Shown one piece after another: positions 6,875 through 36,300 of a stretch of DNA of 40,802 nt (position 1 is its first letter; each line of letters begins with the position of its first letter). Position numbers and translations under genes: made by a program. The stretch covers positions 1-40,802 of the forward strand of contig CACYCN010000122.1 of NCBI GenBank assembly GCA_902772895.1. The letters are read 5' to 3'. The stretch is from an uncultured Ruminococcus sp. (GTDB lineage Bacteria > Bacillota > Clostridia > Oscillospirales > Acutalibacteraceae). The notes under the pieces are model-generated. The model ran no database searches, had not been told where the DNA came from, and saw nothing but the letters and a program-made list of their open reading frames with translations.

Positions 6875-6903
6875 TTGACATTTTAGACAGTATTATTTAT
6901 AAT
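6875..6903 (+). promoter_or_regulatory. Consensus promoter TTGACA-17-TATAAT heading the FHA island
   Basis: ttgaca at 6875-6880 and tataat at 6898-6903. The TTG at 6903 that the ORF track uses as a start lies inside the -10 box, so the true start is further downstream. Confidence 0.65.
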
Positions 6904-6968
6904 TGTATAGAAGAAATGTGGTATTGTGTCTGAAAGGAAATTTAATTCAGAAAGGAACCTATTCGGAA

Positions 6969-10284: not shown

Positions 10285-10374
10285 TTGCCTATTTTGAATC
10301 AGTTTGTAGTATAATAGTTCTAAAGCAAGGAATGTATCCTGCCGGATGTGTTCCGGATGCGGGAGGTTGAGGTT

Positions 10375-11103
10375 ATGGTCGATTATGCATTTGTTACGTC
10401 TGAGGGCGGCAGAGAAGTCAATGAAGATAGTGTTAATATTGTGAAACGGGATGAGAATCATTATTGTTTTCTGCTGGCAGACGGCCTTGGCGGTCACGGC
10501 CTGGGGGATGTGGCGTCCTCTTTGGCAGTCAAGAATTCACAGGATGTGTATATGGCGTTTTGTGAACAGGATAATGTGCTGGGAATGATTTTTGAGGCGG
10601 CGCAGAAACGTGTGTTATATGAACAGGAAAGACGCAGGGCGCATGCCGCTCTGAAAACAACGCTCACAGCCCTGACCATTGAAAACGGTGCGGCAAAATG
10701 GGGACATATCGGTGATTCCCGTATCTACTGTTTTCAGAATGACGCCGTCAGAAAACGTACCAAAGATCATAGCGTACCCCAGATGCTGGTGGATATGGGA
10801 AGGATCACGGAAGATCAGATCCGGAATCATCCGGACCGTAACCGCCTGCTGAGAGTTATCGGTGAAGAATGGTCCTCCATGAGTTATCAGCTGGAAGAAC
10901 CCTTTCCGGTGACGCAGGGAATGGCATTTCTCCTCAGCTCGGACGGCTTCTGGGAACTCATCACCGAAGAGGAAATGATCGCCTGTATGAAATGGCATAA
11001 GAGCGCGGAAGGCTGGCTGAATGATATGGCGGCGATCGTAAAGCAAAGAGGCGCCGGAAAACGCTCGGATAATTATTCCGCTATTGTCGTCCGGATCCGA
11101 TAG
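10375..11103 (+). CDS. PP2C-family Ser/Thr protein phosphatase (copy 1)
   Basis: NEDS, LLADGLGGHGLGDVASS, IGDSRIY, LLSSDGFWE and DNYSAIVV motifs. Start moved to the ATG at 10375, which has GGGAGG at 10361-10366. Confidence 0.85.
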   Translation: MVDYAFVTSEGGREVNEDSVNIVKRDENHYCFLLADGLGGHGLGDVASSLAVKNSQDVYMAFCEQDNVLGMIFEAAQKRVLYEQERRRAHAALKTTLTALTIENGAAKWGHIGDSRIYCFQNDAVRKRTKDHSVPQMLVDMGRITEDQIRNHPDRNRLLRVIGEEWSSMSYQLEEPFPVTQGMAFLLSSDGFWELITEEEMIACMKWHKSAEGWLNDMAAIVKQRGAGKRSDNYSAIVVRIR

Positions 11104-11114
11104 GAGGGAAGACT

Positions 11115-11645
11115 ATGTCATTGAAAATGTGTGATAAGGGTCATCACTATGATGACTCACTGTTTGCTTCCTGTCCCGTGTGCGCGGTGTCTGTGAATGA
11201 AACGCCGCAGGTGAATCCGCCGGTCAAGGTCAAACGGATTACCATCAGCCGCAAACAGACGGAGGATGCCGAAGAAAAAACCATCGCTTATCATTCCGAA
11301 TTCAAAGGAAATAATTATGTGACCGGATGGCTGATCTGCTCGGAGGGCGCGGAAAAGGGAAGAGATTACCGGCTGCATTACGGGTTTAACCGGATCGGAA
11401 CTTCCGGTTTGATGGATGTTTGTATCAACGGTGACCGGAAAATTGCCGACCGGTCGCATTGTTCCGTGGTATATGACAGCAAGGGTAATGAATTCTTTGT
11501 ATCTCCCGGAAAGGGAACCATTACTTATGTCAACGGTGAACTGCTGAAAAAATCAAGGGAACTTCATCAGGGGGATAAGATCGAGATCGGTGAAACGACA
11601 CTGGAATTTATTCCGTATTGCGGAGGGGATAAAAAATGGGACTGA
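11115..11645 (+). CDS. Zinc-ribbon + FHA protein (Zn-FHA paralog A, degenerate pThr pocket)
   Basis: N-terminal zinc-ribbon MCDKGHHYDDSLFASCPVC. C-terminal FHA-like module GWLICSEG...NRIGTSGLMDVCINGDRKIADRSHCSVVY...YVNGE. C-terminal tail FIPYCGGDKKWD. The stop overlaps the next gene's ATG. Confidence 0.75.
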   Translation: MSLKMCDKGHHYDDSLFASCPVCAVSVNETPQVNPPVKVKRITISRKQTEDAEEKTIAYHSEFKGNNYVTGWLICSEGAEKGRDYRLHYGFNRIGTSGLMDVCINGDRKIADRSHCSVVYDSKGNEFFVSPGKGTITYVNGELLKKSRELHQGDKIEIGETTLEFIPYCGGDKKWD

Positions 11646-13549
11646 AAAATTGGACAATCCGGATGGCAGTCGGTATCGCGGTCCTCACGGCGCTGACAGC
11701 GGTGATCCCGTCATTCGGCGCAAAAGCCGCATCGGATTCCCTGGCGGTTTCCGAGATCGAACAGGTCTATGTGAATATGCCGGAGATCCGGGTGTATTTC
11801 AGTCATCTGGACGATGATGTCAGAACGCCCGGCGATATCAGGGCTTTTTATGATGATACCACTATGGTCTGCGAGTCTGTTTCGTATTTTTCGGAAACGG
11901 GTGACGGGGTGGACTATTATGTCCTGTTGGATACGTCGTCTTCTATCCTGAACGCTACCTTCGAAAAAATGAAGGAAGCCATTAAAAGCTTTAATAACGA
12001 GCTGGGAGAAAAAGACCGGATGACACTCATCACCTTCGGAGATGATGAAAAGGAATTATACCGGTCAGACCGCAGCGGTGACGATCTGGCAACGATTCTG
12101 GATAAACTCAATGCTACCAGTAACTCTACCTCTCTGTTTGCGGGATTATCCCTGGCGGCTCAGCTGTCCGACAGTAATAACAGCGATAATTACCGGCGGA
12201 AGATCTGTCTGCTTTATACGGACGGTTATGACAGGGCTGCCGGTAAAGAAACCATTGATGAAACCAAGGATAAACTGATTAAGTATAATCTGCCGGTTTA
12301 TACGATTTCCGCAGTGGCGACGACTTCGGAGGATAACGCCAAGTTAGGCGAACTGTCCAGAACGACCGGCGGCGCAATGAAGGTGCCGGGAAATGATAAG
12401 ACCTTCACCGATATGACCAGGGAAGTGGTGAAGGAGATCGCTGATTCGAATGTGCTGATCTTTAACGCAGATAATAATCTTGTCAGTCCGAATGAAAAGA
12501 AAAGTCTTTCGGTGCAGTTTGTGAAGAAAGATATTACCAAAAGTAAGGATGTCTATTTTATCCGCAGCCAGAAGGATGATACCGCTCCCAAAATTGAGAA
12601 AGTGGAGTCAGATGGCACCGATAAAATCAAGGTTTATTTCACGGAGGATGTGCTGGATGCGGATAATCCGAAGAACTATCAGGTAACCAATGCCCAGGGC
12701 ATTGATATGATCGTCACAGAGGCGGTCTATGAAAAGAAAGACGGAAAGTATATGGCTACCGTTACTTTCAGTACGCCGGTGATCAAGGGAGATTATACGA
12801 TTTCCTGCCGTAATATCTGTGATAATTCCATGCAGAAGAATGCCATCGTCGGCAGTGTGGATCAGTATCTGGAAGGGGTGGAAGCGCCCAATGCGTTCTT
12901 GCAGTTCATCCTCTCCTGGCAGGGAATTATCCTTGCGGCAGTCGTGGTGATCGCAACGGCAGTATTGGTCATCGTTATCATCCGCTCCCGTAAAAAATCC
13001 GCCAGAGCCGCTAAGCTTGCCGCAGAGAAAGCCGCTAAGGAGGCCGCCATAGAGGCTGCCAAGAATACGCCTCCCAAAGTAGTGCAGGTGGTACAGCCCG
13101 TGATGCAGACACCTGCGCCCACTCCCGCTCCTGCTCCGGCTGTTGCGCCGAATCCGCCGCCTCAGAAAGATCCGGTGCCGCATCCCAGACAACAGGTCAT
13201 CAATGATATTGAAAGACAGGCGCCTAAGTATGTGGTCAATATCCGGGAAACCAACAGTATCTTTATGAATATCCAGCTCGAAGGCGGCGAAAGCAAAATG
13301 GTCGAACTGGAATTTGAGGATAAGTTAGTGGTAGGTAGAAGTCAGAACTGTGATGTCTGCATTGATGATAAGTTTATTGCCAGAAATCAGTTTGTGATAG
13401 AAAAACAGAACAATCAATATTATGTAACGGATCTGAATTCCACAAACGGAACTTCCGTCAACGGAATCAGAATTACAGGAAAACACCGTCTGGAAAAGGG
13501 TGATGTGATCAGCGCCGGTATGGTGCGGATGACAGTGTCCTGGAAGTGA
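11636..13549 (+). CDS. Single-pass membrane protein: signal/anchor, extracellular vWA (MIDAS) and Ig-like module, TM, Ala/Lys- and Pro-rich linker, cytoplasmic FHA
   Basis: MIDAS DxSxS (LLDTSSSI) with later T and D (LLYTDGYD). Ig-like segment DDTAPKIEKVESDGTDKIKVYFTEDV. TM GIILAAVVVIATAVLVIVII. Linker PAPTPAPAPAVAPNPPPQ. FHA LVVGRSQNCDVCIDDKFIARNQFVI...STNGTSVNG. The ATG at 11636 overlaps the upstream stop by 10 nt, and GGAGGGG lies upstream. Confidence 0.8.
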   Translation: MGLKNWTIRMAVGIAVLTALTAVIPSFGAKAASDSLAVSEIEQVYVNMPEIRVYFSHLDDDVRTPGDIRAFYDDTTMVCESVSYFSETGDGVDYYVLLDTSSSILNATFEKMKEAIKSFNNELGEKDRMTLITFGDDEKELYRSDRSGDDLATILDKLNATSNSTSLFAGLSLAAQLSDSNNSDNYRRKICLLYTDGYDRAAGKETIDETKDKLIKYNLPVYTISAVATTSEDNAKLGELSRTTGGAMKVPGNDKTFTDMTREVVKEIADSNVLIFNADNNLVSPNEKKSLSVQFVKKDITKSKDVYFIRSQKDDTAPKIEKVESDGTDKIKVYFTEDVLDADNPKNYQVTNAQGIDMIVTEAVYEKKDGKYMATVTFSTPVIKGDYTISCRNICDNSMQKNAIVGSVDQYLEGVEAPNAFLQFILSWQGIILAAVVVIATAVLVIVIIRSRKKSARAAKLAAEKAAKEAAIEAAKNTPPKVVQVVQPVMQTPAPTPAPAPAVAPNPPPQKDPVPHPRQQVINDIERQAPKYVVNIRETNSIFMNIQLEGGESKMVELEFEDKLVVGRSQNCDVCIDDKFIARNQFVIEKQNNQYYVTDLNSTNGTSVNGIRITGKHRLEKGDVISAGMVRMTVSWK

Positions 13550-13581: not shown

Positions 13582-14859
13582 ATGATGTTGTGTCCAAATT
13601 GTTTTAAGTATACTTTTGACGGAAACGTCTGTTCGTCCTGCGGCTATCAGCCCAACGGCGATAATTTTGAAGATATGAAAATGTTCTATAAGCTGAAGAA
13701 CCGTTATTTGATCGGACGGTCCATCGGCGCCGGCGGTTTCGGCATCACCTATCTGGCGTATGATACACTGACAGACAGCCGGGTATGCGTGAAGGAATAT
13801 TTCCCGATGGGTCTGGTGGTGCGCAGCAATGACGGCGTCACCATCCAATATACCCGTCAGAACCGTATGGAGGAATTTCAGCACGGAATCGAACGTTTTG
13901 TGGGAGAAGCAAGGGTCATCAGTGAAATGAGTAATATTTCCGGCGTGGTCAATATTATTGATTGCTTCGAAGAAAACGGTACCGCTTATTATGTCATGGA
14001 ATATCTGGACGGTCTTTCACTCAAGAGAATCGTGCCGGAAGGCGGAATGGATCTGAATGCTGCCAATGATATTATCCGTAAGATCGGCAGAAATATCGAT
14101 CTTGTCCATAAGGAAAAGGGCTATCTTCACAGAGATATCAGCCCCGAAAATATCATGATACTGGCATCCGGACGGGTGGTGCTGATTGATTTCGGCAGCG
14201 CCAAGAATTTCTTTATGAGCAACAGTAACTATACCATTACCCTGAAACATGGTTTTGCGCCGATTGAACAGTATTCTTCTACGGATTCCCAGGGTCCTTA
14301 TACGGATCTTTATGCCCTTGCCAGTACCTACTATTATATGCTCACCGGTAAGGTGATCCCCCGCGCAACGGATCGTCTCAGCGGAGCGCAGTATACGCCG
14401 CTGCATCTGGCAAGATCGGATGTCAGTAAGGCGTTATCGGATGCGGTTGACCGTGCCCTGATGCTGAATCCTGCCGAACGTACCCATACGATCGGGGAAT
14501 TTATCGATGAACTGGAACAGGCGATCGGCGCCAAGAGCGTGGAACTGGTGGAACATTATGTCCGGGTCAATATCGACGGACAGGATGTCAATAAAGTAAA
14601 AGTGGAGCCGGATAAGTGGATGACAGTCGGACGTTCCGTTAAAAGTGATATTGTATTTCCGAATTGTGATAATGTCACCCGTACCCATTGTAAGCTGATG
14701 TTTGATACGTATCGCCAGCGGTATTGTCTGGAGGATTGTTCCACTAACGGTACTTATATCAATTATGTCAGAATGGAAAAAGGAATGCGGTATTTTGTAG
14801 GTGAGACGGATCTGATCATTCTCGCCAATACCCGTTATCGATTAGTATTGGGAGGTTAA
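13582..14859 (+). CDS. Hanks-type Ser/Thr protein kinase with N-terminal zinc-ribbon and C-terminal FHA (predicted active)
   Basis: Zinc-ribbon MLCPNCFKYTFDGNVCSSCG. G-loop GAGGFG, VCVKE Lys, HRDISPEN, DFG, APIE. C-terminal FHA MTVGRSVKSDIVFPNCDNVTRTHCKL...STNGTYIN. Confidence 0.9.
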   Translation: MMLCPNCFKYTFDGNVCSSCGYQPNGDNFEDMKMFYKLKNRYLIGRSIGAGGFGITYLAYDTLTDSRVCVKEYFPMGLVVRSNDGVTIQYTRQNRMEEFQHGIERFVGEARVISEMSNISGVVNIIDCFEENGTAYYVMEYLDGLSLKRIVPEGGMDLNAANDIIRKIGRNIDLVHKEKGYLHRDISPENIMILASGRVVLIDFGSAKNFFMSNSNYTITLKHGFAPIEQYSSTDSQGPYTDLYALASTYYYMLTGKVIPRATDRLSGAQYTPLHLARSDVSKALSDAVDRALMLNPAERTHTIGEFIDELEQAIGAKSVELVEHYVRVNIDGQDVNKVKVEPDKWMTVGRSVKSDIVFPNCDNVTRTHCKLMFDTYRQRYCLEDCSTNGTYINYVRMEKGMRYFVGETDLIILANTRYRLVLGG

Positions 14860-14863
14860 GCGG

Positions 14864-15661
14864 ATGTATTCTTCGGACGAAAGTAACTTTATTACCGAAA
14901 AATATGTGCAGGAATGTCGGGCAACCATGGTGGCTTCGACCATTATCGGCACAAGAAAATATCAGCAGGATTCCTATGGCTGTATTGAAACGCCTGACGG
15001 GGGACTGGCGGTTGTCTGTGACGGCATGGGTGGTCTGGAAGGCGGCGAAAAAGCCAGTACATTGGCGGTAGGAATGCTGATGGAGGATTATCTGCGTACC
15101 CCGGTGACGGATTATAAGGAGTTCTTTTATCAGGAAGCCGTTAAACTGGATGATCTGGTCTATCATATTACGGATGAACAGGGAAAACTATTGGGTGCCG
15201 GTACCACGATCGTAGCCGTGCATATCCAGGGAAATATGATCCATTGGCTGTCGGTGGGAGACAGTAAAATCTATGTGATCCGCAGTAATGCCATGCAGTG
15301 TATTGTCAGAGAACATAATTATCGCATGATGCTGAACGATCTGTATATGAAGGGCAAAATCTCCATTGAACAGTACCGGAGTGAGGAAAGTAAGGCGGAA
15401 GCATTGACCAGCTTTCTCGGCATCGGTAATGTTTCCTTGATCGACCAGAGTGAAACACCCGTGGAACTGCTGAAAGGAGATATTATCCTGCTGTGCAGTG
15501 ACGGATTGTATAAATCTTTGTCGGATGATAAGATACTGGCGATTATTACCGATAACTTTTTTGACCTGCAGCGGGCTGCCAATGAACTGACAGCTTCTGC
15601 GCTGAAGTATTCCGGCAGGGGTCAGGATAATACGACGGTAGTGCTGGTGAGATATAGCTGA
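14864..15661 (+). CDS. PP2C-family Ser/Thr protein phosphatase (copy 2)
   Basis: QQDS, VVCDGMGGLEGGEKAS, VGDSKIY, LLCSDGLYKSL and GQDNTTVVLV motifs. GGGAGG RBS. Starts 4 nt after the kinase stop. Confidence 0.85.
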   Translation: MYSSDESNFITEKYVQECRATMVASTIIGTRKYQQDSYGCIETPDGGLAVVCDGMGGLEGGEKASTLAVGMLMEDYLRTPVTDYKEFFYQEAVKLDDLVYHITDEQGKLLGAGTTIVAVHIQGNMIHWLSVGDSKIYVIRSNAMQCIVREHNYRMMLNDLYMKGKISIEQYRSEESKAEALTSFLGIGNVSLIDQSETPVELLKGDIILLCSDGLYKSLSDDKILAIITDNFFDLQRAANELTASALKYSGRGQDNTTVVLVRYS

Positions 15662-15735
15662 CCGGATGGTGATTCTCTGAACGGTACTGACTGAATCGAG
15701 AGTTGACCGGGAAGAGCATCGTATTGAGAGAACGG

Positions 15736-16125
15736 ATGAGTAAATTGAGTATTTATGACAGAATGGGTTCACATACAAAGTCCCAGATAACGATTGTGCA
15801 TACCACAGGTACTCTTCGGAGAGGCTGTGTGACCGTCCTGAGCGGTGAAGGCGCAGGCAGATCCGTGACGGTTGACGCAATGGAAAAAGTGAAGATCGGC
15901 AGAAACGAAAAGGATTGTGAACTGGTGATCCCTTCCAGGGATATCAGCAGAATTCATTGTATTGCCGAATATGACAGTGAACGGTGTATGTTTATTGTAA
16001 CGGACTGTTCCATGAACGGAGTGTTTATTAATGGACAGCGGCTGCCGCTTAATATTCCTGTGCTGTTCGCAGGAGGAACCATTCTTATGCTGTCAAACGA
16101 TTCGCATCAGATCCTTCTGCGCTGA
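15736..16125 (+). CDS. Stand-alone FHA-domain protein (canonical pocket)
   Basis: VKIGRNEKDCELVIPSRDISRIHCIAEY...CSMNGVFINGQRL. Start set at the ATG at 15736; the track's TTG 15703 start is less likely. Confidence 0.8.
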   Translation: MSKLSIYDRMGSHTKSQITIVHTTGTLRRGCVTVLSGEGAGRSVTVDAMEKVKIGRNEKDCELVIPSRDISRIHCIAEYDSERCMFIVTDCSMNGVFINGQRLPLNIPVLFAGGTILMLSNDSHQILLR

Positions 16126-16182
16126 AGAGGATCTGATGACCAGACCATTAATGGTGTATCAATGTTTATAGAAGGTGATAGG

Positions 16183-17184
16183 ATGTATTTATGTCTGTCG
16201 TGTATGAATGAAATACCGGAGCAGGGGAGAGATGTGTGTCCGTTATGCGGATTCTCTGCCAGCAGTTATCATGTTCCCATGCACTGGCTGGAAGCCGGTT
16301 CTTTGCTGAACCAGCGCTATTATATCGGTAAGGCCCTGAGAACGGATGATTACGGTATTTCTTATAACGCTTATGACGTGGTGATGCAGCGCAGAGTGGT
16401 GATCCGGCAGCTGATGGTGCGCAGCCGGATGCCCAGTGATATCACGATGCTCAGACGGGATGAACCGTTCTTTACGCTGCAGCATGCCGAAAGCTTTTAT
16501 CAGACGTATCGGGAAGAGGCGGATGTGGAGATTTCTTCTCTCCCCAGAATCTATACCTATGGCAGATGCGGGAATGTGCTGTATGCCGTAGAAGAATTTA
16601 TTCCCGGAGCAACACTGGCTCAGTATGTGAAAGACAGCGGCGCCAAGAGCTTTGACGGAACCAAAAAACTGCTGCTGCCGGTGATCATTGCCCTGAAACT
16701 GCTGCAAAGCAGAGGGGTGCATCACGGCAATCTTACCCCGGATCGGATCATCAAAACCGATAAATCCTGTGTGCTGGTAGATCTGACGGGTGTGGATACA
16801 ACGGCGGACGATAAAAACCGGGATCAAGCTGCCCTGACTCCCGAACAAAAGGATGTCAGACATTTCCTGCGGATCTTCCTGTCCGTGCTTTACGGCAGTG
16901 AAACTATGGTGGATGCGGCAATTATCAATGAGGAATTCTTTGACAGAACGGAACCGTATCTTCCGGAAGATGCCAAACAGTATATCTATCAGGCGTTCCA
17001 TCCGGAAGAGCAACAAACCGATATCTCTATACAGGGTGTGCTGAATGTGATTTTTAAATGCGGCGAGATCGCGGTAGGAAAAAAGAACCAGCCGATTCAG
17101 GCAATACCGCCGAAATTCCTGACCGATGCCGCAGAAGCTTCCGGTATGGCGGTTGATAAAATCATCACATCCGTTACCGGCTGA
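16183..17184 (+). CDS. Zinc-ribbon pseudokinase (kinase-like fold with catalytic motifs lost)
   Basis: Same N-terminal layout as the kinase (MYLCLSCMNEIPEQGRDVCPLCG...LNQRYYIGKAL). The G-loop is absent (LRTDDYGISY). The beta3 Lys is Arg (VVIRQL). HRDxxPxN reads HHGNLTPDR. DFG reads DLTG. Start set at the ATG at 16183. Confidence 0.7.
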   Translation: MYLCLSCMNEIPEQGRDVCPLCGFSASSYHVPMHWLEAGSLLNQRYYIGKALRTDDYGISYNAYDVVMQRRVVIRQLMVRSRMPSDITMLRRDEPFFTLQHAESFYQTYREEADVEISSLPRIYTYGRCGNVLYAVEEFIPGATLAQYVKDSGAKSFDGTKKLLLPVIIALKLLQSRGVHHGNLTPDRIIKTDKSCVLVDLTGVDTTADDKNRDQAALTPEQKDVRHFLRIFLSVLYGSETMVDAAIINEEFFDRTEPYLPEDAKQYIYQAFHPEEQQTDISIQGVLNVIFKCGEIAVGKKNQPIQAIPPKFLTDAAEASGMAVDKIITSVTG

Positions 17185-17299
17185 TTCTTCACAAAATGCT
17201 GCTGCCCTCTCTCTTCGGTTTGCCTCTGAAGCGGAAATCGCCGGTGATAGGACGGCTTGTGTCAATTTTTACATTTTTTCCGTTAAAACATACATTGTT

Positions 17300-17328
17300 T
17301 TGACATTTGTTGCTTTATTTGGTATAAT
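17300..17328 (+). promoter_or_regulatory. Consensus promoter TTGACA-17-TATAAT heading the duplicated Zn-FHA / TM-FHA sub-operon
   Basis: ttgaca at 17300-17305 and tataat at 17323-17328. AAAGGAG RBS precedes the ATG at 17386. Confidence 0.65.
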
Positions 17329-17385
17329 AATCTCAAGTTAACTGGAAGAATTCCAACAGTAATTTTTTGAAAAGGAGTTTTTGAT

Positions 17386-18468
17386 ATGACAAAAAGATGT
17401 GTAAACGGTCACTATTATGACGGTGACAAATTCGCCATGTGTCCGTACTGCGGAGCCGGTGATATGGACGGAAATGTCGATAACGGCGAAGCTACCATCC
17501 CGGTATTCCAGGGAGAAGATATCTTCTCTTCCTCGGGCAATACACCGACTGCCTCCAATTATGATGATGCCGGTGATATGGCTACCGTGATGTTGGACCA
17601 GCCGCCGATCGGAGGAAATGATCCCGGTTTCGGAGGCGTTGAATACAGTCCTTTAATGTCTGCACCTATGGCGCAGGATCCGGATGCGACCGTTTCAATG
17701 GGCTCCGGCTCCGGTATTACCGAAGCGATTCAGGGCGTTCCCATGGATTTCGGGATGGGCCAGTCCACCATGGCAAATCAGGATGAAATGGAAGAACTCA
17801 GAAAACAAAAGGAAGAACTGAGAAAACAAAAGGAAGAACTGGAAAAAGCCAGAATGGAAGCGGAAAATGCCAGGGCAGAAGCGGAAAGACTCAAACAGGA
17901 GGCGGAGGAAGCCAAACGTCAGGCTGCCGCTCAGCAGATGCCCACTCAGCAACCCGTTCCGCCGGCACCGCCTGCGGCTCCGATACCTACGGCGCCTCCC
18001 GCTTCATCAGGTCCTGTCAACTACGGCGATCTGCTGAATGATGCCAAGAATAATAAGGCTGCGGCTGCGGATGATGAAAAAACCGTTCGTCTGATGCCGA
18101 GCGGTAATCTGTCTACCGAGCCTATCGTCGGTTGGCTGATCGGTGTCAACGGTCCGTATTACGGCGAATGTTTTGAATTGAAGAACGGGAAGAACTTTAT
18201 CGGAAGAGATTCTTCCATGGACGTTGTTCTGGGCGGAGATAATTCCGTTTCCCGTATCCGTCATGCGGTGGTTCTGTATGAGCCCCATGAAAGAATTTTT
18301 ATCGCTCAGCCCGGTGAGTCAAGAGAACTGTTCTATATCAATGACCGTGTGGTTCTGAAAAACGAACAGCTCAAACCCTATGATATCATCTTAGTGGGAT
18401 CAACCAAGTTGGTGTTCTTCCCGCTTTGCGGCAGTAAGTTCTCATGGGAAGATCTGAAGGAGGAATGA
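17386..18468 (+). CDS. Zinc-ribbon + disordered/coiled-coil linker + FHA protein (Zn-FHA paralog B)
   Basis: RCVNGHYYDGDKFAMCPYCG. Charged heptad-like segment EELRKQKEELRKQKEELEKARMEAENARAEAERLKQEAEEAKRQ. Pro-rich stretch. FHA-like GWLIGVNG...NFIGRDSSMDVVLGGDNSVSRIRHAVVLY...AQPGESRELFYINDRVV. Tail FFPLCGSKFSWEDL. Confidence 0.8.
   Translation: MTKRCVNGHYYDGDKFAMCPYCGAGDMDGNVDNGEATIPVFQGEDIFSSSGNTPTASNYDDAGDMATVMLDQPPIGGNDPGFGGVEYSPLMSAPMAQDPDATVSMGSGSGITEAIQGVPMDFGMGQSTMANQDEMEELRKQKEELRKQKEELEKARMEAENARAEAERLKQEAEEAKRQAAAQQMPTQQPVPPAPPAAPIPTAPPASSGPVNYGDLLNDAKNNKAAAADDEKTVRLMPSGNLSTEPIVGWLIGVNGPYYGECFELKNGKNFIGRDSSMDVVLGGDNSVSRIRHAVVLYEPHERIFIAQPGESRELFYINDRVVLKNEQLKPYDIILVGSTKLVFFPLCGSKFSWEDLKEE
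17791..17842 (+). repeat. In-frame 21-nt tandem repeat (about 2.5 units, EELRKQK) inside Zn-FHA paralog B
   Basis: gaagaactcagaaaacaaaag / gaagaactgagaaaacaaaag / gaagaactgg. Confidence 0.9.
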
Positions 18469-18471
18469 TCC

Positions 18472-19743
18472 ATGAATTATCCAGTCAATAGCAGTCCTGC
18501 GCCGGCGCAGGCACCTCCCACCAAGTCGGTCAAAGCTCTCGTGGCAATGATCGGTGCAATTGTATGCGCAGCGGCAGCTGTCGGTATGATGTTTTTGCCG
18601 TTGGTTACGATCAATAACGGAATCGGTGATTCCGTTACGATCAGTATGTTTGAATACTCCTCTCTCACCACACTGACAACGGCTGACGGGTTCAATCTTC
18701 AGAAAGACGGCGTATTTTCTATGATCGCTACGGTTCTGATGATTTTCCTGGCAGTAGTGCTGGTTGTCGTGGCCGTTTGTAAGATCCTGAGTAAAGTCAA
18801 GGCTTGCCGTATTATCAGCCTGATCGTTTCGATCCTGGGTGTTCTGGGCGGACTGGCCGTTCTGCTTTACGGTTTACTGTTCGGTTCTTTGGTTGTGGTC
18901 GCTTCTTCTCTGGGCGGTTCCGGTTCGATGGGCGTTGCGCCTTTCCTGACACCGGTGTTTACGATCGGTACAATGGTGTTCTGTATTATTGATATGACGG
19001 CTCACAGAGCGGCTCCCGGCGCTCCGTATGCCTTCCCGGCAGATCCGGCTGCTCAGCCGATGCCTGCGATGAATTCCATGCAGCCTCCGATGCCTGCAAT
19101 GGATCCCATGCAGCAGCCCATGCCCGCTCTGGACCCCATGCCGCAGCCCATGCCTGCGATGGATTCTATGCAGCCTCCTATGCCTGCGATGGATCCCATG
19201 CAGCAGCCCATGCCCGCAATGGATCCTATGCAGCCTCCTATGCCCCCGATGGATCCGGTACAGTCGGCGCCTCCTATGGATCCCATTAACTTTGAAGCCA
19301 ATCAGGTTCCTGTGGTTCCCCCGACACCGCTGGGTGATTTCCAGGTGGATCCGCTCGCTTCTACCATTCCTGTTTTTGGCAGTCAGAATGCCGACTTTGA
19401 TCCTGACGATCCGCCCACAACCGTTCAGGAAGGCGGTCTGGTTGGTATCAGCGGCGATTATCAGGGCGCCGATATTCCGATGCGTTCCGGTGAGAAGATT
19501 CTGATCGGTCGTGACGCTTCGGTTTGTAATCTGGTGATCGGCGCGGAAACCAAGGATATCAGCCGTACACATTGTTCTGTCAAGTATGACGCTTATATCA
19601 ACTGCTATAAGGTCATTGATATGTCCTCTAACGGTACCTTTGTGAATGGTCAGCAGCTTCCCAAAAATCAGGAAGCACAGCTCCCTGCCGGAACAATTAT
19701 TTCTCTCGGTAAGGGCGCCAATAAGTTTAAACTCAAGGGTTGA
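18472..19743 (+). CDS. Polytopic membrane protein (about 4 TM) + Pro/Met-rich decapeptide repeats + C-terminal FHA (TM-FHA paralog 1)
   Basis: TM helices in the first 170 aa. Repeat tract PMPAMDPMQQ x7. Canonical FHA ILIGRDASVCNLVIGAETKDISRTHCSVKY...SSNGTFVNGQQL. Starts 4 nt after the upstream stop. Confidence 0.8.
   Translation: MNYPVNSSPAPAQAPPTKSVKALVAMIGAIVCAAAAVGMMFLPLVTINNGIGDSVTISMFEYSSLTTLTTADGFNLQKDGVFSMIATVLMIFLAVVLVVVAVCKILSKVKACRIISLIVSILGVLGGLAVLLYGLLFGSLVVVASSLGGSGSMGVAPFLTPVFTIGTMVFCIIDMTAHRAAPGAPYAFPADPAAQPMPAMNSMQPPMPAMDPMQQPMPALDPMPQPMPAMDSMQPPMPAMDPMQQPMPAMDPMQPPMPPMDPVQSAPPMDPINFEANQVPVVPPTPLGDFQVDPLASTIPVFGSQNADFDPDDPPTTVQEGGLVGISGDYQGADIPMRSGEKILIGRDASVCNLVIGAETKDISRTHCSVKYDAYINCYKVIDMSSNGTFVNGQQLPKNQEAQLPAGTIISLGKGANKFKLKG
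19057..19284 (+). repeat. 30-nt in-frame tandem repeat, about 7.5 units, encoding P-M-P-A-M-(D/N)-(P/S)-M-(Q/P)-(Q/P)
   Basis: Units begin at 19057, 19087, 19117, 19147, 19177, 19207 and 19237, with a partial unit at 19267. The units differ mainly at synonymous or near-synonymous positions. Confidence 0.95.
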
Positions 19744-19895
19744 TCTGATAATCAGACAGGCGGTCCGTATCGGTGCGGTGAAGTGTACGGAAACGGATCC
19801 GCTGCCCTTTGATACACAACATTCATTACCTGACGGCTTGATCTGTCAGCGGATCGGATCCGATCTGATGTAACATTGATAAAAGGAGAATTATT

Positions 19896-20579
19896 ATGAT
19901 AAATACGGTAAGATGCCCAAACAATCATTTTTATGATGCATCCAGATTTCAGGTTTGCCCGTACTGCGGAGCTGCGCCGGGCGTGGCTGCTCCCCAAACA
20001 CAGCCGCAAATGTATCCCCCTGTACAACCGTCACAATCTCCGCAGTCGGTAAATCATATGCCCCCTCAGAATCCCGTTTCACAGCCGGCAATGCCTTCCG
20101 CTCAGCCGGTTATGGTTACGCAGCCCTTCCCCGGTCAGCCCGCCGCTCCTTCCGCCAATACCGCCAATATCTTCCAGCAGTTTACCCAGAGTAACTCTAC
20201 GACCCAGTCTTCGGACAGCAATAAGCAGCCTACGGTAGGTTGGCTGGTTTGTATCGGCGGTTCTTCAAAGGGTAAGTCCTTTGCCATCAGAGAGAACAGA
20301 AACTTTATCGGTCGTTCTCCGTCGATGGATATCGCTATTGTCGATGATAACTCGATTTCGAGAGAAAAACACGGCATTATTACCTATGTTCCCAAACAGA
20401 GATTCTTCCTGGCACAACCCGGTGAATCAAGAGAACTGTTCTATGTCAATGATAAGGTCGTTCTGGATAATGTGGAACTGAGTGCCTATGATAAACTGGA
20501 AATTGGTAAGTCTACATTCCTGTTTGTTCCGCTGTGTGGTTCCGAATTCTCCTGGGATGACTACAGCAGGGATGAATAA
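19896..20579 (+). CDS. Zinc-ribbon + Pro/Gln-rich linker + FHA protein (Zn-FHA paralog C)
   Basis: RCPNNHFYDASRFQVCPYCG. FHA-like GWLVCIGG...NFIGRSPSMDIAIVDDNSISREKHGIITY...AQPGESRELFYVNDKVV. Tail FVPLCGSEFSWDDY. Clearly paralogous to 17386-18468. Confidence 0.8.
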   Translation: MINTVRCPNNHFYDASRFQVCPYCGAAPGVAAPQTQPQMYPPVQPSQSPQSVNHMPPQNPVSQPAMPSAQPVMVTQPFPGQPAAPSANTANIFQQFTQSNSTTQSSDSNKQPTVGWLVCIGGSSKGKSFAIRENRNFIGRSPSMDIAIVDDNSISREKHGIITYVPKQRFFLAQPGESRELFYVNDKVVLDNVELSAYDKLEIGKSTFLFVPLCGSEFSWDDYSRDE

Positions 20580-20581
20580 TC

Positions 20582-21667
20582 ATGAAAAAAGCAATATTAA
20601 TTATTTTCCGGATTCTGATCCCGCTGCTTTGCGCTGCGTCAGCGGCTGCGTTTTTCCTTCCGTCTATCGTTCTGGACTTTGCAAAGGAAGACAGTGAGAG
20701 TATTGAAAAATATGTCGATGACTATCGTGACGCAGAAGAATCTAAAAAAGCATCCTATGAAATGGGCGGTAAGTCGGATGTCATGATTTCCATTGAAGAC
20801 AGCCGGATCTCCGTCGCTGACGTCATTGTGATCCATTCCAAGACAGACGGTAATGAACAGATCGAAAATGCTTCACAGTCTGTCGATATCATTTATAATG
20901 GTATTACAACCACCGTCAATGATAATTATGTCCTGATCTTCATTCTGATTGCGGTTTCCGTGATTTTCCTGCTGGGATCCATGATCTTTTCCGCAATTGG
21001 CGGCAATAAGTATTTCAGTATTTTTGCCATGATCTTTTGCGGGGTTTTCATGGCGGTCAACGGTGCGCTGGCTGCCATTATCCAGACGGTTCTGATTCCG
21101 GCTCTGGATGAGAAAGACCGGATCGGGGCATCCGCTTCTCCGATGCTGTATGCCCTTGTCGCTGCTGCCGCACTGGCTATGGTGCTGGCTATCCTTCGTA
21201 TGATCGTGGAACGGCTTCCGGATCGGAAAAAAGTAAATGTTGCCGTTTCTTCCGGCGATATGGAACAGACGCTTGCAGTGAATCCGAGAACGTATCTCAA
21301 TCAGTCAACGGTCCGTGCGTATCAGCCGCTTGCGCCTCAGCCTGAAGTTAAGCCGGTGATTACCTGTCTGGCAGGAACCTGTCAGGGAATGGACGTTCCG
21401 ATTGAGAATAACGAGACAATTATCATCGGTCGGGAAGCGTCGGTTTGTAATATTATCGCTAAAAATGCGAAGGTCAGCCGTCAGCATTGTTCGGTTTCAT
21501 ATGATCGGAAAAGAAATTCGTATATTGTAACAGATATGTCGCATAACGGCACGTTCCTGGATAACGGAACCAGATTGCTTAAGGATCATCCTAATCTCCT
21601 GCCTGCCGGCAGTGTGATCTATCTGATGGACAGAGAAAATATGTTCCGGTTGGGAGAAAAATCCTGA
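20582..21667 (+). CDS. Polytopic membrane protein with C-terminal FHA (TM-FHA paralog 2)
   Basis: N-terminal TM, about 100-aa exposed segment, 3-4 further TM helices. Canonical FHA IIIGREASVCNIIAKNAKVSRQHCSVSY...SHNGTFLDNG. Starts 3 nt after the upstream stop. Confidence 0.8.
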   Translation: MKKAILIIFRILIPLLCAASAAAFFLPSIVLDFAKEDSESIEKYVDDYRDAEESKKASYEMGGKSDVMISIEDSRISVADVIVIHSKTDGNEQIENASQSVDIIYNGITTTVNDNYVLIFILIAVSVIFLLGSMIFSAIGGNKYFSIFAMIFCGVFMAVNGALAAIIQTVLIPALDEKDRIGASASPMLYALVAAAALAMVLAILRMIVERLPDRKKVNVAVSSGDMEQTLAVNPRTYLNQSTVRAYQPLAPQPEVKPVITCLAGTCQGMDVPIENNETIIIGREASVCNIIAKNAKVSRQHCSVSYDRKRNSYIVTDMSHNGTFLDNGTRLLKDHPNLLPAGSVIYLMDRENMFRLGEKS

Positions 21668-21670
21668 CCG

Positions 21671-21727
21671 GTTCTCTCCGGATTGCCGGAGGGAACAAAC
21701 GGTATTCCCGGTTTCCGGGAATTTTAT
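21671..21727 (+). terminator. Two consecutive hairpins ending the FHA island; the second carries a T-tract
   Basis: Hairpin A is gttctctccgg / ccggagggaac (21671-21696, one G-U-type mismatch). Hairpin B is attcccgg / ccgggaat (21704-22), followed by tttta. Confidence 0.6.
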
Positions 21728-21742
21728 GAAGATGATTTCGAC

Positions 21743-21793
21743 ATATTTAAGACAATGTCAGGTGAAGGGCTTGTTTGACATTGTCTTAAATAT
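21743..21793. repeat. Perfect 18-bp inverted repeat with a 15-nt spacer in the 536-bp non-coding gap
   Basis: atatttaagacaatgtca (21743-21760) / tgacattgtcttaaatat (21776-21793), followed by tttatt. Confidence 0.9.
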
Positions 21794-21988
21794 TTTATTC
21801 GGTAACTTTTGCGGCAGTGTTTCGTGCGCCTCCGGAATAAACAGCACAAAATAACATCTCTTTTCCTCCGGAAACGGCAGGGAAATCAATTTTCAGAAAA
21901 TAAACCGTTGCCGCAACATATTTTCACAAATAGAACAACCGGTTTGTGAAAAAGCAAATGCAAAATCAGCTTTTTTAGGAAGGGAGTT

Positions 21989-22031
21989 CGGGGGATAACC
22001 CTTTTTTCACTTGAAAAAAGGGTTTCCCCCG
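21989..22031. repeat. Second long hairpin (about 18 bp, one bulge) in the same gap
   Basis: cgggggataaccctttttt / aaaaaagggtttcccccg with loop cacttg. The A/T runs lie inside the stem. Confidence 0.7.
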
Positions 22032-22079
22032 AGAAAATGCCGGAAAAAATTGATTTCCGTGCGGAAACGGATGTTGCCC

Positions 22080-22108
22080 TTTACAAGTGGATGAAAACAG
22101 GGTATAAT
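22080..22108 (+). promoter_or_regulatory. Promoter TTTACA-17-TATAAT for the zinc-ribbon/TM/acidic protein gene
   Basis: tttaca at 22080-22085 and tataat at 22103-22108. Confidence 0.6.
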
Positions 22109-22203
22109 GAACAAGAAGACGAGGATGCACAGTTGACTTTTTGTGAATGTGACGGCATTGTCGTCCCAAATGAGAAACATGTAGTTAAAGGACGTGTTGA
22201 CAG

Positions 22204-22863
22204 ATGGTAATTTGTAATAAATGTGGAACGGTGTTTGAGGAGAGTTACTCGATTTGTCCGAATTGCGGGACCCCTTATGTGGAAGAAAAGTCGGATAATG
22301 CACCGGTGCATAAAATTCCGCTTCCTACCCAAAGCCAACCGGCTCCCATGAAACCGGTATCCCCTGAGAAGCCTGTGTCGGATGCTCCTACGGTTCAGCT
22401 GGCGCCTGAGCCGTCAAAGAACTCGGATAAGAAACCACCTGAGAAGTCAAAAAAATTGCTGATTACAATTATTATTATCGTTTGTGCGGTCGTTTTGCTG
22501 GCAGGAGGCGCTGTGCTGGCATTTGTTCTCCTGAATCAGAATAACGGGGACAAAGGTCAGGACGGAAAGACCGAATCTTCTGTTGTGGATGTCAGCGATG
22601 ACCAACAAAACAGTAATCAGACTTCGGATACACAATCTTCCGCCGATCAGGAGTCTGCTGTGGAGTCTTCTGTGGAATCTTCTGTGGAGTCTGTTGCGGA
22701 AGAGTCGGAGAAATCCCTGACGGAATTCTCTGAAGCTTCTAAAGAGTTAACCGACGGTGAACAAGATAATGATACGAATGATACTGCCGGTGACAATGCG
22801 GATAATCATGATGAGGACAATCCGGAGTATTTGCCGGAAGATGTCAATGTCCCTTTGGGATAA
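22204..22863 (+). CDS. Zinc-ribbon + single TM + extracellular Ser/Asp/Glu-rich low-complexity protein
   Basis: MVICNKCGTVFEESYSICPNCG. TM LLITIIIIVCAVVLLAGGAVLAFVLL. The acidic tail contains 12-nt repeats (ESAVESSVESSVESVA, about 22651-22696). Confidence 0.7.
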   Translation: MVICNKCGTVFEESYSICPNCGTPYVEEKSDNAPVHKIPLPTQSQPAPMKPVSPEKPVSDAPTVQLAPEPSKNSDKKPPEKSKKLLITIIIIVCAVVLLAGGAVLAFVLLNQNNGDKGQDGKTESSVVDVSDDQQNSNQTSDTQSSADQESAVESSVESSVESVAEESEKSLTEFSEASKELTDGEQDNDTNDTAGDNADNHDEDNPEYLPEDVNVPLG

Positions 22864-33366: not shown

Positions 33367-36300
33367 ATGATCAAATTATCACGAAAGAAGATCAATCGCT
33401 TCCTGGCCGTGCTGGTGGGTATCGCTCTTTTGATGACGAGCTTTTTGTCAATATATATCGTGAATCATAACCGGGTCCGGGCGGCAGATACGGTTACCGT
33501 CTATTTTGATACTTCCAATACGGGAACCGGTTCCGGCTACGGTTGGTCAAAATCGATGACACAAGTATACTATTATGCCTATAACAGCAGCGGTAACAAC
33601 GGCGGTCTGAAACCCATGACGTATGCGGAAGAAAGCGGCAAGGACGGCGGTAAACTGTTTTATGCTACGTTCGATAAGAAGTATACCGATATCATATTCT
33701 GTTCTGCGTCCTCCTTTCCCTCCGGTAATGACAAATTAAAGCAGACCTACCATCTTTCGGTACAAAATAACGGAATCTATATCCTGAACGGATCACAGTA
33801 TAATGACGGCAATATCAAGTATCAGAATATGTACCGCTATGGTATCTATGAGGAAAAGACGGAGACGGATTATGCCGGTCAGAAATATAAGCTCTGCAAT
33901 ATGACGGATACGGCAGTGGATCTGAAGCTGATCTATACCAACGGCACTGACTCGACTACCGCAAACGTGACGGTACTTGCCAGAGCTACCGGCGATGAAG
34001 TAACCATCCCCTCTGCCGGAGATAATAAAACACCTTACCAACAGGTAACGGTTCAGCGGGCAAATGGCAGTCAGGACCTGAAAACATATGTGTTCTCTGA
34101 AGGAAAAATCATTGGTCAGACGTTCTATTATGGTGTGACAGAGAATCTTCCGGAGAATACACTGGATTACGGCGATACAAAAACACTCTGCTATCGTGGT
34201 GATGACTTCACGTCAACTCCGGCGGTGAACAGCAAGAAACTGTATTTCAGCAAACAGCACTTTCAAGAAGGTTCAACTGTTTCTGTCATGATCGGCAGTA
34301 CCACGTATCCGACCAATGAGGTAACTTCGAAAGGTAATGCCTCGTATGTGACAACCACTGAGGTATCGGTTGCGGCAAATCAGATTTTTTCCGTCATCTA
34401 TAATGGCGTGACCTATAACCTGGTATGGAGCGATGCTTCGAAAAACCTGGTTACCATTACAGGTAATGTAGCCTATCTGAACAGCGTTTACACCGTACAA
34501 AGTACGGACAATATGTTTAATGGACAGAAGTATATTACCATTCAGGCAGACTTCTTCGATTATCAGTACGATAAGTTTCAATATCTGTATAACAACGGGA
34601 CACATAATTCACAGACCGGTTCTGCAAAAAGACCTTATGTGGCGGTCAATACAGCGCTGAGTAAGTCTTCTTACGGCAACACTTCCTATCCGTTGTATCT
34701 GGGTCAGTTCTGGCTACCACTTGTTAATGAAAGCGGTCAGAATTTCCCCACCAGCGACAAGGCTTATACCGCCGCAACTGCAGCAAATCAGCGTGTTGGT
34801 CACAACGGAGATAAGGACACTTACTGGATAGAGGGTGAACAGGACAGCGGCTATTACAAGAACTTTGGTTTCGGCGAAAAAATGAATAACTTCCATTGGG
34901 CAGCAAACCTGGCATACAGAACGTCGGATCAGGCTGCCGGTACTTACAGACCCTATGATGCTGTTGTGCAGGGACTGGTTCATGATACGCTTGCAGTGAA
35001 TGAGGATGGAAGTTATCATCTGATGGCAACGAGTACGGAGACATTTCCGTATTTTGATGCGTCCTGGTGGCAAGGGAACGTTTCCGCTACGATGAAATAT
35101 AGCAACTCGTGGTCACAGACACAAACCGTCAATAAGTCGGATTATCTGACGGAATACCAGCAGCTCCCCTTCCCATTCTTTGAGATTCAGGACAGTGATA
35201 TTTCCTTCCAGAACGGCTATAGCTCAGACTGTATGTTGTCAAACGAAAATGATAAGTATGAAGGAACCTACTATGTATTCGATTCCCATAAGTATTCCAT
35301 CTTTGTGGATAACAGCGGACTGGCAATTACCGGTAACAAAGGAGACCATCTGGTCTATGACAACTACGGTGACGGTAAATTCACGGATTCACAGCCCGGT
35401 TTCTTCCCGTTCAATACAACGGTTGATAATAATTCGGCAAGATTGCATTATGGCTTCGGCGTGCAGTATACGATGGATTTCTTCTATAACGAAAACGGTA
35501 CCCTGAATGGTGAACCGGACGGTATTCCGATTACCTTTACTTTCCAGGGCGACGATGACGTGTGGGTATTCGTGGATGATAAACTGGTGCTGGATATGGG
35601 CGGCGCTCATAAAAACGCTATCGGTGAAATCAACTTTAATACACAGTCCGTTTATATCGGTTCGGCAGAAAAGATCACAAACAGTAATAAGGACAATGTG
35701 ACGACCAATGATCCTAAGCCGTCTTATACCGCCAATTTCAGCAATCTTGGTGTCGGTAACATGAAAGTCGGTAAGCATAAGATCACCATGTATTATCTCG
35801 AAAGAGGTATGCTGAACTCCAACCTGTATGTCATGTTTAACCTGCCGCTGGCACTGACAACATGGGAACTGCAGGAAGATACGGATTTTGAAGGCGTTAA
35901 TGAAGGTTTCCTTGCCTCTACCAAGTTCGTTTCAGATAATGATATCTTTAACTACAGTGTATCCAATAAAGGTACAGAACAGAAGGGCGTAACCGGCAGC
36001 GGTTATAAGAGCCCCAGCTATGGTACTGTAGCCAGAAATAATAATGGTATCGACGGCGGAAATACGCGTCAGACTGCACTGAGTGAAGGTACGGTTCCCA
36101 CGCTTTCAACGATCACATCGACCCAAACCAAGCCGAATCGAATCTATCTTGATACCAGCAGCTTTACCGGTTGGGAAGGTGGCAATGCCAAGTATGGCGC
36201 CTTTATGAAGAATTCTTCCACAGGTAAGAGAATGTACGCTCCCGCTAAAAAAGACTTAGATAACAATAAATGGTATGTGGATTATTATGATGCCTATCCG

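Follow-up and report, generated by a model that had tools for sequence, protein, structure and literature searches.

We analysed a 40,802-nucleotide (nt) stretch of DNA (hereafter the window; contig CACYCN010000122.1, positions 1 to 40,802, of assembly GCA_902772895.1) from an uncultured Ruminococcus sp., in which a previous reading of the sequence alone had recognized two consecutive gene pairs, each consisting of a gene for a zinc-ribbon protein with a forkhead-associated (FHA) domain (Zn-FHA) followed by a gene for a transmembrane (TM) protein with an FHA domain (TM-FHA). All four open reading frames (ORFs) were found at the coordinates given by that sequence-only reading. Pair 1 consists of ZnFHA1 (17386-18468, + strand; 360 amino acids, aa) and TMFHA1 (18472-19743, +; 423 aa), and pair 2 of ZnFHA2 (19896-20579, +; 227 aa) and TMFHA2 (20582-21667, +; 361 aa). 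The gaps within the pairs, described earlier as 2-3 nt, measured 3 nt in pair 1 and 2 nt in pair 2, and the Shine-Dalgarno-like sequences at both junctions sit within the 3' end of the upstream gene. The first gene of each pair was expected to encode a soluble protein with an N-terminal zinc ribbon, a disordered linker and an FHA-like domain, and the ribbon pattern, the FHA match and an AlphaFold2 model agreed with this description. Likewise, the second genes were found to encode multi-TM proteins ending in a canonical FHA domain, with four hydrophobic segments each. The Pfam FHA model was found in all four proteins, weakly in the Zn-FHA proteins (approximately 26 bits) and strongly in the membrane proteins (52-57 bits), and it exceeded its cut-off in all six proteins when a third Zn-FHA protein of the window and its membrane partner, described below, were included.

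Homologues were collected by scanning one genome per species, which gave 342 relatives. The 80 loci with the best matches to ZnFHA2 were kept, their ORFs were called and then labelled with hidden Markov models built from the window's own domains, and the resulting Zn-FHA set comprised 128 distinct genes from 80 genomes. ZnFHA1 (C5-H9-C19-C22 ribbon, FHA domain at approximately residues 245-345, C-terminal tail PLCGSKFSW) and ZnFHA2 (C7-H11-C21-C24 ribbon, FHA domain at residues 112-215, tail PLCGSEFSW) matched each other in BLASTP with 145 bits (E = 2e-46), and their N-terminal ribbons gave a separate match of 58% over 24 aa. When all 10 FHA proteins of the window were compared with one another by BLASTP, these two were reciprocal best matches (144 bits), followed by the third Zn-FHA protein, ZnFHA3 (69-87 bits), and then by the remaining FHA proteins with at most 49 bits. 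Because the two are reciprocal best matches by a wide margin, their likeness is more than that of any two FHA domains, and the alignment extended it beyond generic FHA residues to the shared ribbon and the PLCGxxFSW tail. The invariant non-FHA positions of a 25-sequence alignment were a C-x3-H-x9-10-C-P-x-C ribbon, the G-W of the first strand and the C-terminal PLCGxxFSW tail; ribbon and tail were invariant across 25-30 Zn-FHA homologues, and the ribbon, in the form C-x3-H-x9-10-C-x2-C, was present in 123 of the 128 family members. When the isolated N-terminal ribbons were compared with Pfam, no model, zinc-finger models included, reached its cut-off. The Zn-FHA family has many members (1384 clusters at 90% identity for E <= 1e-5, and 1969 at 50% identity for E <= 1e-30), and the only name its members bear in the databases is 'FHA domain-containing protein'.

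Some variation was seen within this family. Homologues with two tandem N-terminal C-H-C-C ribbons exist (P0037 and P0051; L003 9983-10693), and in L003 a 109-aa soluble FHA protein is encoded downstream of the Zn-FHA gene, the TM-FHA gene lying upstream instead. A third, very divergent Zn-FHA subgroup of 267-339 aa (profile score 72-79 bits) was found in L013-L015 and L019 (e.g., L015 10016-11020). Its genes come after an FHA-polytopic-TM gene with reversed domain order, and in three of four loci a 223-aa ribbon-only protein is encoded next downstream.

The AlphaFold2 model of ZnFHA2 consists of a two-strand N-terminal ribbon (predicted local distance difference test score, pLDDT, 80-89), a disordered linker and an FHA sandwich (residues 110-215, pLDDT 93-97). 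Its fold is the eleven-stranded beta-sandwich of the FHA superfamily (PF00498), with 120 PDB FHA matches at E <= 0.001 and template-modelling scores (TM-scores), normalised by target length, of up to 0.90 against PDB FHA domains. The top PDB matches in Foldseek were the FHA domains of GarA, OdhI and FhaA (root-mean-square deviation 1.3 A, 29% identity), and GarA was also ranked first in a profile search of PDB sequences with Zn-FHA. Aligned to GarA, the Zn-FHA domains retain the phosphate-binding Gly-Arg (beta3-beta4) and Ser-Arg. One residue is inserted before the conserved His, giving S-R-x-x-H for Ser-x-x-His (beta4-beta5), and in beta6-beta7 Glu-Leu replaces Asn-Gly (S-R-E-L for S-x-N-G) inside a near-invariant GESRELFY.

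Approximately 14 residues before the first FHA strand, most Zn-FHAs of both subfamilies carry the motif acidic-x-(K/R)-T-(V/I)-x-x-Y, hereafter the T motif, which reads DDEK-T233-V in ZnFHA1 and EEK-T56-I in ZnFHA3. T56 lies within residues 27-65 of the AlphaFold2 model of ZnFHA3, where pLDDT is below 50, and such a position in a low-pLDDT segment is the typical pattern of a predicted short linear motif. The T motif was present in 71 of the 83 Zn-FHAs with an FHA-bearing downstream partner versus 6 of the 14 with a TM-kinase partner. The linker of ZnFHA1 is long, disordered and coiled-coil-like; that of ZnFHA2 is Pro/Gln-rich and disordered, with a degenerated T motif. Two adjoining 21-nt repeat arrays (17786-17887) encode EELRKQK-type heptads in the ZnFHA1 linker, a charged, coiled-coil-like insert that is absent from ZnFHA2 and ZnFHA3.

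TMFHA1 has its four TM segments at approximately residues 17-177 and a canonical FHA domain at approximately residues 326-421 (GR, SRTH, SNGT), and TMFHA2 has TM1-TM4 within residues 1-199, followed by a linker and a canonical FHA domain at residues 263-357. Both proteins are built in the order TM1, exo-loop (28 or 75 aa), TM2, TM3, TM4, linker and FHA, the 75-aa exo-loop of TMFHA2 being acidic, and the translations of both hold every canonical phosphothreonine (pThr)-binding residue (GR, SRTH/SRQH, S-NGT). They were also reciprocal best matches in BLASTP (48% identity, 89 bits), with a match limited to the 97-aa FHA domain; BLASTP showed no similarity between their TM regions. The nearest relative of the two FHA domains within the window was a small FHA protein encoded at 15703-16125 (73 and 63 bits). 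The Pro/Met-rich cytoplasmic linker of TMFHA1 contains QPMPAMDPMQ decapeptides encoded by a 30-nt tandem repeat (19054-19256; 6.8 copies, 79% identity), and among TM-FHA orthologues the length before the FHA domain varies widely, from 232 to 414 aa.

Conservation of the Zn-FHA and TM-FHA adjacency in other genomes, which the sequence-only reading had put forward as a check, was evident from the homologous loci. Same-strand neighbours at most 300 nt apart were counted, which gave 118 Zn-FHA genes and 449 other genes in the same loci; a membrane FHA gene came next after 84 of the former versus 76 of the latter (71% vs 17%; odds ratio 12, p = 1e-28, uncorrected for phylogeny). Downstream of all 128 Zn-FHA genes we found a polytopic TM-FHA (40), a TM-FHA with a von Willebrand factor A domain (vWA-TM-FHA, 31), a TM kinase (14), an FHA-FHA-ABC exporter (11) and a LytTR regulator (2), the remainder being other genes, genes on the opposite strand or contig ends. 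The gaps to the downstream gene were mostly -40 to +30 nt. Counted from the side of the partners, a Zn-FHA gene preceded 31 of 34 vWA-TM-FHA, 40 of 71 polytopic TM-FHA and 11 of 28 FHA-ABC genes, and a PP2C gene lay directly upstream of 69 of the 128 Zn-FHA genes. The earlier description of the pair as obligate did not hold, with approximately 30% of the Zn-FHA genes preceding something else and 44% of the polytopic TM-FHA genes having no preceding Zn-FHA. The pairing is strong, not obligate.

The two pairs are also paralogous as a two-gene unit, as the sequence-only reading had suggested. The order Zn-FHA, polytopic TM-FHA, Zn-FHA was found in at least eight genomes (the window, L001, L005, L006, L007, L008, L044 and L083), in five of the eight in the complete four-gene form. 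In neighbour-joining trees of the Zn-FHA proteins and the partner FHA domains, ZnFHA1 clustered with the first-position genes of seven other genomes, ZnFHA2 clustered with the second-position genes, and ZnFHA3 fell in a separate clade made up almost entirely of genes upstream of vWA-TM-FHA. The partner FHA domains formed one polytopic-TM superclade, the position-1 and position-2 subclades of which hold the same genomes as the Zn-FHA clades; vWA-linked FHA domains clustered outside this superclade with FtsW- and ABC-linked ones. The distance matrices of Zn-FHA and partner FHA were correlated (r = 0.785, 40 pairs; maximum 0.40 in 2000 permutations), and for the five two-pair genomes r was 0.79 with the true pairing versus -0.24 when partners were swapped in some genomes. 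Given the congruent trees and correlated distances, the pair was copied and passed on as a whole, long before the species diverged. At the DNA level, blastn aligned only two stretches between the pairs, of 82 nt (76% identity) and 39 nt (82% identity). The idea of a recent amplification in this genome was thus not borne out, since the arrangement occurs in at least eight genomes and DNA identity is nearly erased; the blastn remnants (82 nt at 76%) and the orthologue trees rule out a recent tandem duplication. In itself, the duplication of a pair is an ordinary evolutionary event.

The pairs were said to have their own consensus promoter, and a sigma-70-type promoter (17300-17328, +; TTGACA, a 17-nt spacer with an extended -10 TG, TATAAT) does lie 57 nt upstream of the ZnFHA1 start. 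It scores 12/12 and is the sole perfect match within 9-23 kb. Upstream of the orthologous gene, -10-like elements were seen in most of the seven other tandem loci, most clearly in L005, L001 and L007. Between the pairs lies a structured, palindrome-rich spacer of 152 nt (19744-19895, +) with a ribosome-binding site, AAAGGAG, before ZnFHA2. It is rich in GATC/CGGATCCG palindromes and folds at -46 kcal/mol (z = -2.4), and the same position in orthologous loci holds only 14-64 nt. An Rfam scan of 17000-22300 gave spurious microRNA matches only and no known RNA element in the spacer, which could be an internal attenuator, a processing site or an inserted element. After the last pair gene, a terminator-like hairpin of 20 bp with a T-rich tail (21745-21791, +) is the probable end of the transcription unit.

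A third Zn-FHA gene had been listed as a further instance of the same rule, that of a soluble Zn-FHA gene immediately upstream of a membrane FHA gene. ZnFHA3 (11115-11645, +; 176 aa, with ribbon, disordered linker and FHA domain) is real and overlaps by 10 nt the gene for a vWA-TM-FHA protein (11636-13549, +; signal/TM, extracellular vWA, TM, cytoplasmic Pro-rich linker, FHA). That part of the claim stands; the partner differs from TMFHA1 and TMFHA2 in architecture and FHA clade, its FHA domain scoring approximately 30 bits against theirs, and ZnFHA3 belongs to a separate, vWA-linked Zn-FHA subfamily. At 31 of 34, Zn-FHA plus vWA-TM-FHA is the most conserved of the pairings.

The sequence-only reading viewed the pairs in isolation. 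They are in fact the distal part of a conserved kinase/PP2C/multi-FHA supercluster, which in the window extends over approximately 6.9-22.9 kb on the + strand, with approximately ten FHA domains in the region. It begins with an FHA-FHA-ABC exporter of Rv1747 architecture (6903-9248, +) and a LytTR regulator, followed by a PP2C phosphatase directly upstream of ZnFHA3 (10348-11103, +), ZnFHA3, vWA-TM-FHA, a Zn-ribbon Hanks kinase with a C-terminal FHA domain (13582-14859, +), in which the K, HRD and DFG motifs were present by eye, and a second PP2C phosphatase (14864-15661, +). Then come the small soluble canonical FHA protein (15703-16125, +) and, as the last gene before the pairs' promoter, a Zn-ribbon pseudokinase with weak kinase matches (16162-17184, +); after the promoter, the two pairs and the terminator-like hairpin, a Zn-ribbon-TM protein closes the array. 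Among the 55 loci with full flanks, PP2C was present in 44, a Ser/Thr kinase with FHA domain (STK-FHA) in 41, polytopic TM-FHA in 41, vWA-TM-FHA in 30 and FHA-ABC in 25, and the number of FHA domains per 12.6 kb had a median of six (range 2-8). The commonest order was PP2C, Zn-FHA, vWA-TM-FHA, STK-FHA, PP2C, Zn-FHA and then polytopic TM-FHA or FHA-ABC. For the Zn-ribbon Hanks kinase-FHA class, vWA-TM-FHA preceded in 33 of 41 loci. Parts of the cluster recur across Lachnospiraceae, Oscillospirales and related metagenome-assembled genomes, and clusters of this type are common among Clostridia of the gut and rumen.

Several other genes of the region were noted. In the translation of the pseudokinase, a Zn-ribbon protein of kinase-like fold, the VAIK Lys is replaced by Arg, HRD by HHG and DFG by DLT, and the pseudokinase is kept just upstream of the position-1 Zn-FHA in L005, L007, L008 and L044. 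The Zn-ribbon-TM protein after the cluster (22204-22863) has much longer relatives in other loci, often in series (L001 12383-13828 and 17231-19866, with TPR and other repeat domains; L005 7848-10907; L008 6614-10405), and these proteins may be sensors or substrates of the system. On the - strand, an FtsW/RodA-family protein (2274-3944), whose N-terminal part holds a TM segment and an FHA domain, is followed by a class B penicillin-binding protein (PBP) transpeptidase (891-2261). The two make up an FHA-regulated peptidoglycan synthase pair near the cluster, and the FHA domain of the former clusters with the vWA- and ABC-linked ones. Farther away, a 1879-aa protein with DUF7601 and DUF5979 repeats (33367-39006) and an LPXTG-anchored SpaA-fold protein (39125-40726) represent surface or pilus-like proteins of the Gram-positive kind that have nothing to do with the pairs. 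Four cluster loci (L019, L038, L050 and L054) come from bins labelled Bacteroides, Selenomonadales, Prevotella and Bacteroidales; these are probably mis-binned or mislabelled contigs and not real transfers.

Based on these observations, we propose with moderate confidence that the pairs are ancient paralogues, each a two-gene unit with translational coupling, that they are transcribed from their own promoter at the distal end of a Hanks-kinase/PP2C/multi-FHA cluster, and that their proteins dock on each other in a pThr-dependent manner. The kinase encoded at 13582-14859, which presumably writes the pThr marks, would phosphorylate threonines of the disordered linkers. The membrane protein, through its canonical FHA domain, would then capture the phosphorylated motif of its cognate Zn-FHA and so recruit this soluble adaptor to the membrane, the FHA domain and ribbon of the Zn-FHA itself might engage a further phosphorylated target or an output, and the two PP2C phosphatases would reset the system. 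Duplication of the unit, followed by divergence of the linkers and exo-loops and by loss of the T motif in ZnFHA2, would have produced two channels that differ in specificity. The data show paralogy, co-inheritance, conserved adjacency, the fold, motif conservation and genomic context; that the linkers are phosphorylated, that the proteins pair physically and which way the signal runs is what we infer.

The adjacency itself could be read in another way: Zn-FHA and TM-FHA proteins might be operon neighbours without a specific partnership, each an independent substrate or adaptor of the same kinase/phosphatase cluster, with adjacency reflecting operon order and co-expression. In clusters that hold 2-8 FHA domains per 12.6 kb, one FHA gene is likely to lie next to another anyway; TM kinases, LytTR regulators or unrelated genes also come after Zn-FHA genes, and the upstream PP2C neighbour (69 of 128) is about as conserved as the downstream one. 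However, the adjacency is four times the same-locus background (71% vs 17%), the junctions overlap or measure just 2-3 nt, and duplication and inheritance involved the two genes together. We consider the absence of a partnership unlikely. The membrane partners bear on a different history, in which duplication affected the Zn-FHA gene alone and the two copies ended up beside different, pre-existing polytopic FHA membrane genes. Such independent recruitment seems quite improbable to us, because the partner FHA domains form one superclade with two subclades mirroring the Zn-FHA clades, both partners have four TM segments and an exo-loop in the same place, and the pairing is consistent across the two-pair genomes. 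What speaks for it is that the TM regions lack BLASTP similarity and are matched only marginally by hhalign, that polytopic TM-FHA genes also occur without a Zn-FHA, and that in L001 the TM2-type gene lies elsewhere, after an ABC gene, the position-2 Zn-FHA there preceding another gene.

The structure of the Zn-FHA proteins recalls a self-inhibiting switch of the GarA/OdhI type, in which the phosphorylated Thr motif would bind the protein's own FHA domain and thereby release or block a target, the membrane FHA being a parallel component. GarA and OdhI were the best structural and sequence matches, and a disordered N-terminal segment with a conserved Thr before the FHA domain resembles theirs. 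The geometry of the FHA fold points the other way: a Thr approximately 14 residues from the first strand would leave a short tether for reaching the binding loops, which sit at the opposite end of the domain. The beta6-beta7 Asn-Gly is moreover replaced in Zn-FHA, the OdhI model gave 23 bits against a cut-off of 200, and there is no metabolic-enzyme context. We assign this mechanism only a slim chance.

Several points weigh against the docking of cognate pairs that we favour. The canonical T motif is lost in ZnFHA2 and in its closest orthologue, and without it pair 2 of the window cannot use the proposed docking unchanged. Linker phosphorylation and the complex of Zn-FHA and TM-FHA are themselves inferred. 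Approximately 30% of Zn-FHAs have other downstream genes, and 31 of the 71 polytopic TM-FHA genes lack an upstream Zn-FHA. The match between the TM regions is marginal (hhalign of orthologue profiles; TM2-TM3 hairpin, 77% probability, 51 columns), and hydrophobic segments are prone to spurious matches. The 80 loci, being the best ZnFHA2 matches out of 342, are a biased sample; the neighbour-joining trees carry no bootstrap support; and shared phylogeny inflates the figures for adjacency enrichment, for the mirror-tree correlation and for the association of the T motif with the type of partner.

Much is known of FHA/Hanks-kinase/PP2C signalling in Actinobacteria and in type VI secretion; to our knowledge, it has hardly been studied in those Clostridia that are dominant in the gut and rumen. 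The general kind of system is already known, and the useful result is a widespread, unnamed gene-pair family. The analysis delimits the large Zn-FHA family itself, with its C-H-C-C ribbon, T motif and divergent FHA domain, and its habitual position directly upstream of membrane proteins with canonical FHA domains. If the pairs are cognate phospho-dependent complexes, they would offer a tractable entry into FHA-rich envelope signalling, and cultured carriers exist (e.g., Petralouisia muris, Faecalicatena contorta, Fusibacillus kribbianus and Lachnospiraceae JLR.KK009); in the window, the divergence of specificity between duplicated pairs could then be followed as a natural experiment. More speculatively, and with rather low confidence, the pairs might be a Ser/Thr-phosphorylation counterpart of two-component pairs, in which the membrane FHA protein with its variable ectodomain or exo-loop (four-TM, vWA or ABC) would be the input and the Zn-FHA the phospho-gated output, and duplication of the pair would be the way in which Clostridia obtain new, mutually insulated channels that share one kinase and phosphatase set.

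Neither this clostridial cluster nor the Zn-ribbon FHA family was found to be described in the literature searched, and NCBIfam and PADLOC scans, which gave only sub-threshold generic FHA or kinase matches, revealed no described family that covers the pair proteins. The GarA/OdhI model (NF041660) scored 23 bits for ZnFHA2 (cut-off 200), the FhaB/FipA Rv0019c model (NF049868) 19-28 bits for the Zn-FHAs and 24 bits for TMFHA1 (cut-off 125), and the TagH/Fha1 model for type VI secretion systems (T6SS; TIGR03354) 30-34 bits (cut-off 120), in a window that is Gram-positive (LPXTG proteins) and without T6SS genes. The gathering score of the model for the cytoplasmic domain of YscD (type III secretion system, T3SS; PF16697) was marginally exceeded by ZnFHA1 only (34.5 vs 33.2 bits), a match explained by the FHA clan to which the model belongs; the other proteins were below it, and there is no T3SS context. 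An assignment to EspA, with sub-threshold matches only, was also rejected. As for anti-phage defence, PADLOC gave no match for ZnFHA2, ZnFHA3, TMFHA1, TMFHA2 or vWA-TM-FHA, only coiled-coil noise for ZnFHA1 and only generic kinase matches for the cluster kinases. The MoxR-vWA ternary conflict systems of Kaur et al. (2020; PMC7159879), which take in Esr, were rejected, as the ORFs of the window that were scanned include neither MoxR nor any AAA+ protein. In the Esr pathway, which includes a vWA protein and a kinase/phosphatase pair, the FHA output protein EsrG is phosphorylated on Thr in a disordered linker and has a variable N-terminal domain, for which zinc-finger variants are reported (PMC13622651). 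Esr is actinobacterial, and the window scans found no MoxR ATPase, beta-propeller sensor or Esx genes, so membership is not supported.

Other known systems resemble parts of the cluster. GarA and OdhI of Actinobacteria are, like Zn-FHA, small soluble FHA regulators in which a disordered N-terminal segment carries a conserved Thr; they have no zinc ribbon, their motif is ETTS and not D-x-K-T-V, and Zn-FHA differs from them further in its shorter tether, its replaced beta6-beta7 Asn-Gly and its genomic context. The mycobacterial fhaA-fhaB-pstP-rodA-pbpA-pknA-pknB cluster likewise joins FHA adaptors with PP2C, Hanks kinases, a pseudokinase and an FtsW/RodA-PBP pair. There, in FhaA-MviN(MurJ), an FHA domain docks on a phosphorylated membrane protein, and the pseudokinase at 16162-17184 recalls the pairing of the MviN pseudokinase with FhaA; the N-terminal domain of FhaA is DUF3662, whereas that of Zn-FHA is a zinc ribbon, and the membrane proteins of the window themselves carry FHA domains. 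The FHA domains of Rv1747 bind pThr in the protein's own disordered linker, written by the operon-encoded kinase PknF (PMC3138270). Its architecture is present at 6903-9248, and FHA-ABC lies directly downstream of Zn-FHA in 11 related loci; Rv1747 itself has no soluble zinc-ribbon FHA companion, and the TMFHAs have no ATPase or ABC permease domain. A Deinococcus operon encoding vWA, kinase, FHA and PP2C is a further precedent (bioRxiv 10.64898/2026.01.23.701218).

In Sulfolobus acidocaldarius, ArnA (zinc finger plus FHA) binds phosphorylated ArnB (vWA), an interaction that depends on phosphorylation by Hanks-type kinases and is reversed by a phosphatase (PMC6509490). A zinc-finger FHA protein of the ArnA type proper was rejected for the Zn-FHAs: their ribbon is C-H-C-C and not a four-Cys RanBP2 finger, the ArnA FHA structure 5A8I was not among the profile matches at E <= 0.01, and it was also absent from the top Foldseek matches of ZnFHA2. 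ArnA/ArnB is archaeal and the window system clostridial; ArnB resides in the cytoplasm, unlike the extracellular vWA domain found here, which belongs to a partner with an FHA domain of its own, and pairs 1 and 2 contain no vWA domain at all. Nevertheless, PP2C, ZnFHA3, vWA-TM-FHA, STK-FHA and PP2C follow one another in the window in that order, with the same gene-pair logic, and by this analogy ArnA/ArnB is the nearest counterpart in logic, for ZnFHA3 plus vWA-TM-FHA only.

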